From: Puniceicoccales bacterium | Lineage (GTDB): Bacteria; Verrucomicrobiota; Verrucomicrobiia; Opitutales; UBA9783 | Direction of reading: 5' to 3' | NCBI GenBank assembly: GCA_031258545.1 | Contig: JAIRMU010000015.1 | Location: forward strand, 12,761-76,760 | Length of the DNA: 64,000 nt | Shown: piece by piece, positions 29,099 through 37,140 of the stretch | Position numbering within the stretch: position 1 is the first letter of the stretch | Layout of the letters: each line of letters starts with the position of its first letter | Position numbers and translations under genes: made by a program | Notes under the pieces: generated by a model | Database searches by the model: none | Seen by the model: only the letters and a program-made list of their open reading frames with translations | Told to the model about the DNA's origin: nothing

Positions 29099-30727
29099 AT
29101 GGCTATCAATGCAACAGGGGTAACACAAGTTACCCATCCGATTACGAGTACACCAGGTGCAAATGATACCGGTAGCGTTACAAAAAATCTAACCTCTACT
29201 GCAGGCGTGCCCCAACAAGACCAAGCAACATCCGCATTATCGGATGCCACAAAGCAAAAACAAAGACAAATTGCCCTAACAAACCAACCCAAAACAGCTG
29301 TGGCACTTAATCTTTTGTTAGGTGAAGTACAGCAAGGAGTAAAGTATAAACCAGTGCAGATCGAAAAAACATTGTTGGAAGACATGCAACAAAATCCTCT
29401 TCGCAACCTTTTAGGTGCTAAAATAACTTTCAATATTGATCCTCAAAATTTACTACAGCAACAAAAAGACAACATAGATCATGATATAGCGTGCGTAGAA
29501 CGATGGCTGTCTGGCATTCCTCATTGTTCGCCCAAGCAACAAGGTAAACTATGTGCCGGACTGGGTGAACGAATAAATGGGTCCCCCTATCAACCTGAAA
29601 TATTGGCACTTCTGAATCAGCATGCTACAAATAACCCACAAATTGCAGCTACTAGAGATGCCTACGCAGGTAAACACAGCGAGCATATTACAGGAGAATT
29701 TTGTCAAAAATTAAGTGCAGTTTTAACAGAACCAACGCAGGAAACGCAGGTCACACCCATGCAGGCCAAACTTGCATTTATCGAGCAATTCAATGGGGCA
29801 CAAAGTTTAGAGAATAAAAGCGCCACCCAAATACGAAATGAACAGGCGGCTATAGAATCTCTATTAAAAAAAGATGATCTTACACCTTCAAATCGCGTAT
29901 TTTTACAACAGTTATCCTTGGCATACGAAATAAAGTTGAACGAAAATAATCCAAAGAAGATGGTAGAACTCGCTTCACAGTTCGCAGAACAAGAAGTACC
30001 ATTCTTGCGACAGATGGTTCAGGTGGCTCAAAATATTAGTCAAACGAACACTATGTCGGAGGCGCAAAAACAAAGAATATTGGATGCCCAAGATATAACT
30101 GATATATCAGCCAGGATATGCGATGCGATGTTCCCTAGAACAATGGAAGCTGTCAAGATGCCGAAGTTCAAAACTAAAGGAGATGCCTACTTAAAAATAT
30201 ATGGTAATCATGTAACGCAAGGAGTTATGCGTTTTAACAGCTTAATGCAAGAGATGGTAAAAAAAACACTAGCATCAGACCCTGAAACGGTAAAACGAGT
30301 AGGTGACGAGCTCAAAGGATATATAAATTTATTCTCATCGAATACAGCTTTATATACAGCCCGTGTCGAAGAAGCCTCTACAAAAGAATTACAATCCTTT
30401 AATACAACAGGCTTAATCAATGCAAACGACGGTAGTTTTGCCGAGTTTGACAAACAGCATTCACTGGACATCTTGAAGGGATTTTCAACAAAAACATTAC
30501 AATCTCTCGTTGAACGTGGTCAAGAACTCAGCAAGCAACCAAAGGCTAACACAACAGAGTTTCGAAAATCATTTGAAGTTGTTTTACGGTATGCACCTCT
30601 TCCGGAAGACCAGCGAGAGAGGCAACAAATGTTTGGGATCTTAACACAAGGTATTCAGTGCTTCCCCCAGAAAATGCAAAAGGAATTAGGCAGCATTTTA
30701 CAGAGTCGGATCACGCCATCTGCCTAA
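29099..30727 (+). CDS. Array gene E1 (542 aa): orphan paralog, candidate T3SS effector
   Basis: S/T/P-rich N-terminus, no Sec signal or TM segment; central/C-terminal module (TQIRNEQAAI...LFSSNTALYTARVEEASTKELQSFNTTGLI) is shared with E5. Confidence 0.75.
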   Translation: MAINATGVTQVTHPITSTPGANDTGSVTKNLTSTAGVPQQDQATSALSDATKQKQRQIALTNQPKTAVALNLLLGEVQQGVKYKPVQIEKTLLEDMQQNPLRNLLGAKITFNIDPQNLLQQQKDNIDHDIACVERWLSGIPHCSPKQQGKLCAGLGERINGSPYQPEILALLNQHATNNPQIAATRDAYAGKHSEHITGEFCQKLSAVLTEPTQETQVTPMQAKLAFIEQFNGAQSLENKSATQIRNEQAAIESLLKKDDLTPSNRVFLQQLSLAYEIKLNENNPKKMVELASQFAEQEVPFLRQMVQVAQNISQTNTMSEAQKQRILDAQDITDISARICDAMFPRTMEAVKMPKFKTKGDAYLKIYGNHVTQGVMRFNSLMQEMVKKTLASDPETVKRVGDELKGYINLFSSNTALYTARVEEASTKELQSFNTTGLINANDGSFAEFDKQHSLDILKGFSTKTLQSLVERGQELSKQPKANTTEFRKSFEVVLRYAPLPEDQRERQQMFGILTQGIQCFPQKMQKELGSILQSRITPSA

Positions 30728-30950
30728 CTTCGCCATGTGTTTAACGATATGCCTGCCTCCGAAAAACGGCTTCGATCGTAAGATGCCCGGCATAATGGGC
30801 ACATGCGGATAATGGCCTCGGAGAAAGTATTTGTCCATCCACAAGACTTTTTCTACTTTGATGGCATCTTCGCGTAAATTAAGAACTTTGTTCACGCACA
30901 AAATGGAAAATGATGCAAAATCGCATCCAAATTCTTGTTCTTTGGTCCAT
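30728..30950 (-). pseudogene. Decayed copy of the 5' part of the fabZ-like gene at 28536-28991
   Basis: Reads VNKVLNLREDAIKVEKVLWMDKYFLRGHYPHVPIMPGIL versus VDKILNLHEDVIEVEKVLRVDEYFFQGHYPHMPIMPGVL; frameshifts on both sides; DNA similarity continues into the promoter region. Confidence 0.88.
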
Positions 30951-31003
30951 GCCTTCCCCCTCTTTCTAGAGCAAATCGACAATAAATTACATCTTTACAT
31001 TTG

Positions 31004-34569: not shown

Positions 34570-37014
34570 GTGTCTGGTCCAATATCAGCTTCTGGTGATT
34601 TATCTCCACCAATCACGAACGATCTCTCATCGTCGAACCTCGTAGGGAAAGATGATGCGGGCCGTTCAGTTGTACAAAACTCAGAGCCTATAGTACTGTC
34701 CTACGATACGTTCGTTACGATATGCCGAAACTCTTTCGGCGGTAGACCACTAAAAGCACTCTGCGAGCCGGCAGCACAAGTACATAATCATCAGGTGCAA
34801 CAAAATCCATGTTCTGCCACAACGAATGAACCCGCTCTGGCCAACAGTACAGAAAACCCACATCCATCCCTCGATGCAATACGCCGGCACTCTTTTAGCG
34901 GTAGATTATCGGAAACAGCGCAAACAAACCCACAGAACAAGACAGACGCTCAAAAACCGGAAGTGTCGCAAGAACAATATCGCAGCGATGCCGAAAGCTT
35001 TTTAAGATCAGCCAACAAGTTCCATGAAGTGCGAGCCCAGTATGAGGGGCAAAGTGGTATAGGTAAGTATTTACCTAAGAACCGGCACCGAGCTGCAATG
35101 AGTGCTGCACACCAGGAACTAGGCCAACAAATTCAAAACCATCAATTTTCACAGGATCCTCAATATAACAGAAAGATGGTGAGTTTATGGCTGGCAACCG
35201 CGAGCGATCTTCCCCCCAATGCGCAAAAGGCAATATTTGCTCTGATTGCTTCAAAACTAACCGACTGTCCGTATCAACCAGAGGTTCTGACATTGTTGAA
35301 TAAACAAGCTAAAGATAACCCACAAGTCGCAGCTATTAGAAATACTTACGTAGACTCAAAACAAGATTCCATCACAGAAGATTTTTCCTCGACTTTAAAT
35401 ACAGTTTTAAAAGGGTCCATGAAAGAAAAAACTAATTTCATCGCACAATTTGAGGAAGGGAACCAAAGTTTTGAGAACAAAAACACTACCCAAATACGAA
35501 ATGAACAGGCGGCCATAAAAGCTTTATTAGCAAACAATGATCTTACACCTTCAAATCGTGTATTCCTACAACAACTGTCTCTGGCATACGAAATAAAATT
35601 AAACGAGAATAATCCTAGACAAATGATAGCACTCGCTTCACAGTTCGTGGAACAAGAAAAACCATTGTTACAGCAGGTTGCTCAAAATATTAGTCAAACG
35701 GAAGGAATATCGGATGCACAAAAACAAGAAATATCGGATGCCTGTGATATGGCCGAAATAGCAAGTAAGATATGCAATGCGACATTCCCGAGAACAAAGG
35801 AAGCTGTTGACATACCCAAGTTCAAAACTAAAGAAGAAGCCTATTTAAAAATATATGGTAATCATGTAACGCAAGGAGTTATGCGTTTGAACAGCTTAAT
35901 GCAAGAGATGAAAAAACAAGCATTTGAACCAGAACTAAAAGTAGTTAATCGAGGACAACCGAACGCAAAGCTAATGGTAGGACTAGTTGCCAACGAGCTT
36001 CAAGGATATATAAGTCTGTTCTCATCGAATACAGCTTTATATACAGCCCGTGTCGAAGAGGCTTCTACAAAAGAATTACAATCCTTTAATACAACAGGCC
36101 TAATCAGTCCAAAAGACAGCGGGTTTATCGAATTCGATAAAAAGCATTCGCTGACATCTCTGACAGCATCTCCAAGTGAAAATCTTAAATCCTTGCAAAC
36201 AATCACCGACCAACTCAGTCAAGCTCAGTCAAAGTCTCAAAAAGCACAATTGCAGAATCAATTTGCAGCCATTATAAAACACACCCCCATTCCGAACACT
36301 TCCCCCGAAAACCAGCAAATATTTTTAGCCTTACTGAAAGGCATTTATCAATGTCCTCCCAATAATCAACCGGCATTACTTCATGCTTTGCACGATCAAT
36401 TGCAAAAATCTGTCGAGCAAGCCAATCCTGCATCCGAGGTAAATAAGTTATTGCTGCAACAAATGAACTTGGGAATCGAGGCCATGGGGCTCGGAAATGA
36501 TCCCCAAAAGCTCATAAAGATAGAAAGACAAATTTTATCAAACTGCATCCATTATTTAACAAATCAGCTAAATTCTCCCATTGATAACCAACACTGTCAA
36601 GAATTACTCACGGCCGCAAATATATTTGCACAAATGGCTGCCGCCATGATTCAAATACCTCCTGCTGCTGTCAACCCACCATATGCTAGCAAAGATGAAG
36701 CACTATTAATGCTCCACACACAATTCTCCCAAGATATTACTCGCTTGCCTCTCTTAATGAAGGAGATCGCTAGAGATGTTGAAAAGGATGACCAAAACCA
36801 TTTACGGCACGCTTTGGAAGAATTGAAAACCGTTGCGGCACATATGATACCTATGTTAGAACTTGCACAAGCAAGAGTCGACCGCATGACATTGAAAGAA
36901 ATTAATACGGTAGGTACAAATATCATTTCAGCTGCCTCACCTAGAACACAACCAACCGATGAAAAATATGGCATCACTCCAGAAATGCGGCGGCAAGCAG
37001 GAGGCAACAATTAA
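34570..37014 (+). CDS. Array gene E5 (814 aa, GTG start): chimera of E1-type and E4-type modules, candidate T3SS effector
   Basis: GKDDAGRSVVQN motif; middle part matches E1, C-terminal part matches E4. Confidence 0.78.
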   Translation: MSGPISASGDLSPPITNDLSSSNLVGKDDAGRSVVQNSEPIVLSYDTFVTICRNSFGGRPLKALCEPAAQVHNHQVQQNPCSATTNEPALANSTENPHPSLDAIRRHSFSGRLSETAQTNPQNKTDAQKPEVSQEQYRSDAESFLRSANKFHEVRAQYEGQSGIGKYLPKNRHRAAMSAAHQELGQQIQNHQFSQDPQYNRKMVSLWLATASDLPPNAQKAIFALIASKLTDCPYQPEVLTLLNKQAKDNPQVAAIRNTYVDSKQDSITEDFSSTLNTVLKGSMKEKTNFIAQFEEGNQSFENKNTTQIRNEQAAIKALLANNDLTPSNRVFLQQLSLAYEIKLNENNPRQMIALASQFVEQEKPLLQQVAQNISQTEGISDAQKQEISDACDMAEIASKICNATFPRTKEAVDIPKFKTKEEAYLKIYGNHVTQGVMRLNSLMQEMKKQAFEPELKVVNRGQPNAKLMVGLVANELQGYISLFSSNTALYTARVEEASTKELQSFNTTGLISPKDSGFIEFDKKHSLTSLTASPSENLKSLQTITDQLSQAQSKSQKAQLQNQFAAIIKHTPIPNTSPENQQIFLALLKGIYQCPPNNQPALLHALHDQLQKSVEQANPASEVNKLLLQQMNLGIEAMGLGNDPQKLIKIERQILSNCIHYLTNQLNSPIDNQHCQELLTAANIFAQMAAAMIQIPPAAVNPPYASKDEALLMLHTQFSQDITRLPLLMKEIARDVEKDDQNHLRHALEELKTVAAHMIPMLELAQARVDRMTLKEINTVGTNIISAASPRTQPTDEKYGITPEMRRQAGGNN
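36386..36498 (+). repeat. 113-bp perfect direct repeat, copy 2
   Basis: Identical to 33826-33938. Confidence 0.9.
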
Positions 37015-37097
37015 CTAAAAACAAATTACGTTATTTAATCTCTTTTTTAATTTCTTTCTGCGACAAATCCCACGTAAAACACGTCTTTTCATATGCA

Positions 37098-37140
37098 TTG
37101 ACCAAATTGTCTTGCAAGTGTCGTAAATTGTTCTTAAACT
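37098..37140 (+). promoter_or_regulatory. Array promoter copy 6
   Basis: TTGACCAAATTGTC-TTGCAA-N17-TAAACT; ATG follows after 10 nt. Confidence 0.68.

Follow-up and report, generated by a model that had tools for sequence, protein, structure and literature searches.

A hypervariable tandem gene island with old architectures and probable short-tract gene conversion in a termite-gut Puniceicoccales bacterium

Ectopic gene conversion homogenises the members of several bacterial multigene families, for example, tuf, rrn, the opa genes of Neisseria, and the pmp genes of Chlamydia, and the concerted evolution of such families in bacteria was reportedly reviewed by Santoyo and Romero in 2005. Here, we compare with them an island of six tandem paralogs, E1 to E6, all on the plus strand at 29.1–38.5 kb of a 64,000-nucleotide stretch (contig JAIRMU010000015.1, positions 12,761 to 76,760; assembly GCA_031258545.1), in the following termed the window, from an uncultured Puniceicoccales bacterium (Verrucomicrobiota) sequenced in a termite-gut metagenome run. 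Similar to the families named above, short non-reciprocal tracts appear to homogenise tandem paralogs, the paralogs cluster by genome, and the tracts stop where homology does. In contrast to them, the substrates in the island are modular orphan proteins that would be converted module by module, with segmental duplication and recombination between internal repeats as additional processes.

Three further systems invite comparison. Terminal reassortment of type III effectors is said to have been described by Stavrinides, Ma and Guttman (PLoS Pathogens, 2006), and the island is reminiscent of it in that a shared promoter and N-terminal region are joined to different C-terminal modules of different ancestry; its parts, however, come from neighbouring paralogs of one family rather than from unrelated genes, and secretion of its products is putative. 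Chlamydia possesses tandem paralogous substrates of its type III secretion system (T3SS), for example, the DUF582 proteins CT619–621 and CT711–712. Both cases concern a bacterium of the Planctomycetes-Verrucomicrobia-Chlamydiae (PVC) superphylum with scattered T3SS loci and clustered all-alpha paralogs that have disordered N-termini and no other known domains, whereas the island proteins have neither sequence nor fold similarity to the DUF582 proteins, and phylum as well as host setting differ. Cassette antigenic variation, finally, as in Neisseria pilE/pilS, Borrelia vlsE, and Anaplasma msp2, combines one expression site with promoterless silent cassettes. Common to these systems and the island would be the segmental gene conversion that makes mosaic surface or host-facing proteins, but all six island copies have a full open reading frame (ORF) and their own conserved promoter, and a silent-cassette system was ruled out on this ground.

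The island is flanked by fabZ (28536–28991, minus strand) and by a gene for an SBP_bac_5 oligopeptide-type solute-binding protein (SBP; 38578–40185). Proteins of the family consist of a disordered N-terminus with a GK(D/N)xxGRxVxQN motif that is common to all paralogs, one to three WL..CSPK.Q motif domains, and helical M and C cores, the latter being distant duplicates of each other (E5 613–783 vs. E1 253–436, 24 %). Syntenic islands fetched from related termite-gut Puniceicoccales metagenome-assembled genomes (MAGs) served as outgroups. The genes and the modules of E5 are the following:

29099–30727, plus strand: E1, 542 amino acids, from the ORF list; N-terminal disordered region, WL..CSPK.Q motif domain, M module, and truncated tail
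31058–31663, plus strand: E2, about 201 amino acids; start placed by promoter alignment and the orthologs L4b and L1a (MSLQV...)
31793–32749, plus strand: E3, 318 amino acids; orthologs L4c (57 %) and L3c (47 %)
32940–34439, plus strand: E4, 499 amino acids; N-terminal region, three motif domains, and C module
34570–37014, plus strand: E5, 814 amino acids, GTG start; from the mosaic map and blastn
34570–35229, plus strand: A module of E5 (residues 1–220)
about 35269–36159, plus strand: M module of E5
36160–36247, plus strand: linker of E5
36248–37014, plus strand: C module of E5
37151–38494, plus strand: E6, 447 amino acids, distant family member; ortholog L3f (31 %)

The C modules of E4 and E5 are weakly similar to E6. 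The orthologs of E4 are L3a and the frameshifted L1b plus L1c (L1bc), that is, a gene of MAG Cc175_bin121 (L001 8546–9882) split by the frameshift into two parts, either as a pseudogene or through a sequencing error.

Probably, this island is a hypervariable locus of old architectures in which ectopic gene conversion overwrites short tracts between paralogs. Non-reciprocal homologous recombination would act wherever the paralogs keep enough identity, and conversion, segmental duplication, and unequal recombination between internal repeats would jointly lead to species-specific combinations of modules, the products of which may be substrates of the T3SS encoded in the same window. The clearest event would be a tract of 260–300 nt with a perfect core of 113 nt, copied from E5 into E4:

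33690–33960, plus strand: conversion tract in E4 (probable recipient), perfect core 33826–33938; based on the proportion of differing synonymous sites (pS), identity, and bootstrap
36250–36520, plus strand: conversion tract in E5 (probable donor), perfect core 36386–36498; based on identity to the ortholog L5

A preliminary description of this DNA had pointed to the perfect core with diverged flanks, and all of its coordinates proved exact: 33826–33938 and 36386–36498 agree over 113 nt with 0 mismatches in a run that is not extendable on either side, and 30332–30412 in E1 differs from 36019–36099 in E5 by 2 mismatches in 81 nt. Three independent signatures, namely, synonymous sites, comparison with orthologs as outgroups, and tree topology, speak for conversion between E4 and E5. 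The longest identical run between E4 and E5 (113 nt) compares with a mean of 25 and a maximum of 65 nt when these alignment columns were shuffled 20000 times (p<5e-5), and a Sawyer-type test, confined to positions at which E4, E5, and two orthologs vary, returned 45 consecutive concordant sites at 33826–33935 (p<5e-5). At synonymous sites, the pS between E4 and E5 is 0 over 33765–33944 and 0.07 over 33700–33960, with zero synonymous differences over about 60 codons of the tract, as compared to 0.54 in the left flank and 0.41–0.62 in the right flank. Between related species, flanking housekeeping genes have a pS of 0.32–0.43; the flanks of the tract are thus as old as the species and the tract far younger.

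The phylogenetic signal changes over the same short distance. Inside 33694–33950, E4 and E5 are 84–100 % alike and both are close to L5, the E5 ortholog, with L1bc at 48–85 %, and neighbour-joining trees group E4 with E5 (99 % bootstrap); in 33990–34200, trees of the same type group E4 with L1bc (92 %) and E5 with L3a (100 %), so that the topology switches within 300 nt. To the left of the tract and in 33990–34200, E4 is closest to L1bc (65–85 %), and E5 and E4 share 40–58 %. E5, in turn, is 80–97 % identical to L5 through the tract and also through the linker on its left, where E4 is unrelated. Beyond the perfect core, a gradient of identity with real differences extends for about 100 nt. Taken together, gene conversion is well supported by these alignments as the origin of the tract, and because E4 is L1bc-like on both sides of it and E5/L5-like inside, the direction was probably from E5 to E4.

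The M modules of E1 and E5 would likewise evolve in concert, which within the window is visible as patches:

30122–30290 and 30314–30412 in E1, corresponding to 35776–35950 and 36001–36099 in E5, plus strand: patches of raised identity; based on pS and run test

In these patches, the pS between E1 and E5 falls to 0.06–0.26, as compared to 0.41–0.51 between E1 and its relative L1d from another genome, and the signal is weaker than for the E4/E5 pair, with a run that measures 44 nt and includes 9 polymorphic sites at 30332–30371 (p about 0.0015). Outside the patches, pS values of 0.4–0.75 for E1–E5 and E4–E5 are as large as or larger than those between species. The closest pair at synonymous sites alternates along M between E5 and L1d, E1 and L1d, and E1 and E5, which indicates that several older exchanges may have taken place.

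A similar situation seems to exist in a second species. In the Ncb351 assembly, contigs L011 and L007 end at the same point of the M module, and L007 and L005 start at the same M base; identity between the paired contig ends amounts to 98 % and 97 %, and for L007 and L005 it drops abruptly at the end of M. These matching ends imply that the Ncb351 genome has an E1-type and an E5-type gene with almost identical M modules. At the 3' end of M, identity between the paralogs amounts to 0.82 for E1 and E5 of the window and to 0.97 for the E1-type and E5-type genes of Ncb351, while the positional orthologs of window and Ncb351 share 0.68 (E1) and 0.72 (E5). Judged by these identities, the paralogous M modules cluster by genome and appear to undergo concerted evolution, which is patchy in the window and almost complete in Ncb351, so that conversion evidently recurs in the second species. 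In both species, the shared M sequence has its right edge at one and the same codon, about residue 530 of E5, where homology comes to an end. The suggestion of "ongoing" conversion in the preliminary description therefore stands on an evolutionary scale, with recent tracts in two species, but not within a population.

Allele import, that is, a mosaic due mainly to homologous recombination among related termite-gut strains or species, is the most serious competitor of within-genome conversion, although we consider it unlikely. In its favour, positions 36580–36760 of E5 group with L3a of another species with 100 % bootstrap, and the donor is not present in the window; moreover, 29852–30030 of E1 is closest to L1d (pS 0.23–0.28). 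These findings are outweighed by the E4/E5 tract and the Ncb351 M modules, in both of which donor and recipient reside in the same genome and are far more alike than between-genome pairs. The E5 segment 36580–36760, which belongs to the C module, is unlike E4, the ortholog of E4, and also the E5 orthologs L5 and L6 (48–70 % identity).

Somewhat less probable still is that the patchy identity is in part an artefact of short-read assemblers, either by repeat collapse and consensus correction or by stitching of strains. Such a scenario would fit with the assemblies of most relatives, which break inside the island, and with the independent Logan contigs of the same public run (i. e., assembler contigs), which were used to check the assembly and break exactly at the shared tracts, including the E1/E5 patches. 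On the other hand, the Logan contigs agree with all unique segments without a single difference, their depth is even at about 24–25x, and the contig with the perfect tract has a depth of 35.8x, as compared to 37.5x expected for two full copies. One 273-nt Logan contig (36070–36342) furthermore crosses the junction between the E1-like and E4-like parts of E5 (the M–C junction) in unique sequence. Collinearity of E4 with its ortholog is also kept to the left and right of the tract, and collapse would not produce the gradient of about 100 nt with real differences.

The preliminary description had regarded E5 as a chimera of E1 and E4, and a recent within-genome fusion of a copy of the E1 middle with the 3' half of E4 and its downstream DNA would indeed reproduce the overall pattern of similarity. 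In self-blastn comparisons, the middle of E5 resembles E1 (29801–30473 of E1 vs. 35464–36159 of E5, 77.8 % over 706 columns, with an additional match of 29585–29669 to 35269–35353) and its 3' part resembles E4 (33688–34567 vs. 36248–37144, 78.9 % over 906 columns), and the latter alignment extends beyond the stop codon over intergenic DNA and the next promoter; E5 is thus E1-like at 35269–36159 and E4-like at 36248–37144. That E5 is a mosaic of segments with different closest relatives was confirmed by a map of 40-residue sliding windows along the protein, with the following closest relatives:

E5 residues 21–220: N-terminal module of P0004/P0005 from other species
E5 residues 241–320: L1d
E5 residues 301–540: E1
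E5 residues 541–660: E4
E5 residues 661–720: L3a
E5 residues 721–814: E4, L1c, and L3a about equally

However, a recent origin from E1 and E4 is very improbable. The first 220 residues derive from neither gene, and the 88 nt between the two blastn matches (36160–36247) are like neither E1 nor E4 and yet conserved in the ortholog of another species, in locus L005 of another MAG, which is 84–91 % identical to E5 in the linker, with 66–91 % as the wider range, as compared to 40–44 % for E4. The protein of this locus, P0006, aligns to residues 471–814 of E5 in one stretch across the M–C junction, and its gene adjoins an SBP gene, as does the E5 region. With a pS of 0.40 between E5 and P0006/L005 and of 0.43 for a neighbouring housekeeping gene, the ortholog spans the junction at housekeeping-level divergence, from which we infer that the M–C junction predates the species split; this largely refutes the recent fusion, which was accordingly ruled out as the origin of E5. 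P0010 shows the same A–M junction, and the architecture of E5 (A–M–linker–C) hence appears to be old, three-part, and shared across species. The pS values outside the patches, at or above between-species divergence, likewise speak against a recent fusion. Finally, E4 and E5 do match in their "next promoter", but this promoter, like the intergenic similarity, belongs to a family-wide cassette, which precedes all six genes as well as homologs in three other genomes (L001, L003, and L004). What survives of the proposed module shuffling is therefore the mosaic itself and at least one recent short-tract conversion that links E4 and E5. Strong purifying selection on the protein or on a nucleic-acid element in place of recombination, finally, is the most improbable explanation and was ruled out for the perfect tract, which does encode a part of the C module (LHDQLQKSVEQANPASE.NKLLLQQ) that is conserved and recognisable in orthologs, but in which synonymous sites are homogenised too (none of about 60 codons differs synonymously, as compared to a flank pS of 0.4–0.6), while orthologs differ from E4 and E5 at 14–35 % of sites in the segment and the tree topology flips between adjacent segments.

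For the reading of old architectures overwritten by conversion, the history of E1 (N–M–truncated tail) is equally instructive. E1 133–541 matches E5 204–614 in blastp with 52 % identity, and in its last 85 residues E1 repeats, in diverged form, the beginning of the C module (QQMFGILTQGIQCFPQK vs. QQIFLALLKGIYQCPPN). The end of E1 lies 15–40 nt before a remnant of fabZ:

30741–30956, minus strand: pseudo-fabZ, degraded copy of the 5' part of fabZ (28766–28989), 77.7 % over 224 nt

This copy lacks a start codon and has stops in frame; it is the scar left by a segmental duplication, the second breakpoint of which lies at the 3' end of the E1-type gene. Ncb351_bin56 shares the E1-type tail (...RITPSD* vs. 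...RITPSA* in E1) and the pseudo-fabZ (L007:498–684), followed by E2- and E3-like genes. Since tail and scar are common to both genomes, E1 looks like a derived, truncated paralog of considerable age and would not be a parent of E5.

Two further rearrangements were observed in other genomes. L1d is followed by a stop codon and then by an ORF of a D module (FPYEFQQHID...), which in other species is fused to the upstream part. In the E5-type gene of P0008 (L006 3–977), from another species, the M core (NENNPKK) is followed directly and in frame by the C core (NDPQKL) with a loss of about 290 residues, which looks like the outcome of unequal recombination between the two internally duplicated cores.

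The family-wide cassette is predicted to act as promoter and was recognised as a repeat family by alignment:

28997–29092, plus strand: promoter cassette
30951–31046, plus strand: promoter cassette
about 31700–31786, plus strand: promoter cassette
32861–32932, plus strand: promoter cassette
34468–34563, plus strand: promoter cassette of E5
37045–37140, plus strand: promoter cassette

It comprises about 60–95 nt with the consensus CTTTACGTTCGTTGACAAAATTGTCTTGCAAATG...TAAATTGTT.TTAAACT, and its core 22-mer occurs 4 times, as compared to 0 expected. TTGCAA is followed after 17 nt by TAAACT and the start codon 6–11 nt further on; the short spacing from the putative −10 element would suggest leaderless or nearly leaderless mRNAs. 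These promoter elements were read by eye from the cassette alignment; a scan with the sigma-70 consensus did not pick up the cassette and found sites no more numerous than in shuffled sequences. A gene for a sigma-70 family factor of 271 amino acids with regions 2 and 4 is located at 8051–8866 (minus strand) in the same window as the T3SS genes. The palindrome GACAA-NN-TTGTC was considered as operator and dropped, as it is present in the cassettes of the window but not conserved in other species (CACAAAATTATC). The position of the cassette moves the start of E2 from TTG at 31034 to ATG at 31058, and promoter position and N-terminal homology together point to true lengths of 542, 814, and about 201 amino acids for E1, E5, and E2, respectively, so that database gene calls are N-terminally truncated (470 amino acids for E1, from an internal start, and 739 for E5).

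The distribution of the family is very narrow. Among 1.84 billion representative proteins, searched exhaustively with HMMER, there were 19 relatives only, all from one genus-level clade of termite-gut Puniceicoccales; a scan of GTDB genomes with E5 alone retrieved nothing, and with a short alignment of the M core it retrieved two Puniceicoccales MAGs only. Nothing specific was found in the literature on these MAGs or on T3SS in termite Puniceicoccales, and no RNA runs are listed. E1–E6 matched 0 families of Pfam and NCBIfam, and the best hit of a sequence-profile search against the PDB had an E-value of 0.11, with none below 0.1. AlphaFold2 (AF2) models of E5 and of its C module reached a predicted local distance difference test score (pLDDT) of 75 and 78.5, respectively, with residues 1–125 of E5 disordered (pLDDT <50) and the remainder all-alpha. 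In Foldseek searches of the AF2 models against the PDB, the best E-value was 0.017 with a template modelling (TM) score of 0.12 (C module: best E-value 0.48), and the matches represent generic helical-repeat or pore-toxin noise with TM scores of 0.1–0.3, so that the fold gave no function.

Whether the E proteins are T3SS effectors is, in our view, evenly balanced. Termite-gut Puniceicoccales MAGs with the island carry a non-flagellar T3SS, and the window encodes one, because of which a host-facing role, as proposed in the preliminary description, is plausible:

20108–22273: SctS, SctT, and SctU, above NCBIfam equivalog cut-offs
55130–55588, minus strand: CesT-family chaperone gene
56549–58992: T3SS stretch with a small tetratricopeptide repeat (TPR) protein directly upstream of sctV
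56890–58992: SctV, above NCBIfam equivalog cut-off

The T3SS genes are scattered across the window in a chlamydia-like layout. E1–E6 have no signal peptide and no transmembrane or hydrophobic segment, and S, T, P, N, Q, and G account for a fraction of 0.50–0.70 of their first 50 residues. The family evolves rapidly, with a proportion of differing nonsynonymous sites (pN) between species of 0.25–0.45 (33–60 % identity), as compared to 0.03–0.08 in flanking housekeeping genes, and with a pN/pS of 0.5–0.75. Such fast evolution fits T3SS effectors under relaxed or diversifying selection; of the diversifying selection that had been proposed, the rapid change is borne out, but the ratio of nonsynonymous to synonymous substitution rates (dN/dS) is never significantly above 1.

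Several points weigh against the picture of conversion among paralogous effectors. Bubble-popping or smoothing during assembly could have erased one or two real differences in the 113-nt tract, and linkage across the perfect tract was judged from coverage and orthologous synteny. Support for the direction from E5 to E4 comes from the frameshifted gene L1bc together with only two further sequences of the C module. For older segments, for example, 36580–36760 of E5, inter-strain recombination or paralogs since lost could be the source instead of within-genome conversion. Regarding the proteins, none of the Pfam, NCBIfam, and PDB searches linked them by sequence or fold to a known effector, and a mean dN/dS of about 0.5–0.75, thus below 1, leaves relaxed constraint as a possible cause of their divergence. 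Their secretion is putative; gene context with a T3SS, a CesT-family chaperone, and a TPR protein, the polar and disordered N-terminus, the lack of signal peptide and transmembrane segment, and the narrow distribution make an effector role plausible.

The mechanism, conversion among tandem paralogs, is already textbook knowledge; what is new is an undescribed and very narrowly distributed protein family. Its significance lies in the fact that at least five species permit a comparison of one chromosomal slot and hence an ordering of the steps, namely, duplication with the pseudo-fabZ scar, truncation, deletion of modules, and conversion in a probable direction, and that a family without database description adjoins a chlamydia-like T3SS in a Verrucomicrobiota genome. 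More tentatively, and with considerable doubt, the island may be a dedicated effector-diversification locus of termite-gut Verrucomicrobiota, probably protist symbionts, in which the near-leaderless promoter cassette and the N-terminal motif, for secretion or chaperone binding, would be portable "heads", while the repeated WL..CSPK.Q motif domains and the duplicated M/C cores would serve as recombination substrates, yielding species-specific sets of T3SS effectors from a common pool of modules. If true, the island would represent an effector superfamily not described before and a remarkably clear natural case of combinatorial effector evolution in the PVC superphylum, and should the E proteins be T3SS effectors, their common promoter and N-terminal motif would provide a handle for finding the remaining effectors of these bacteria.

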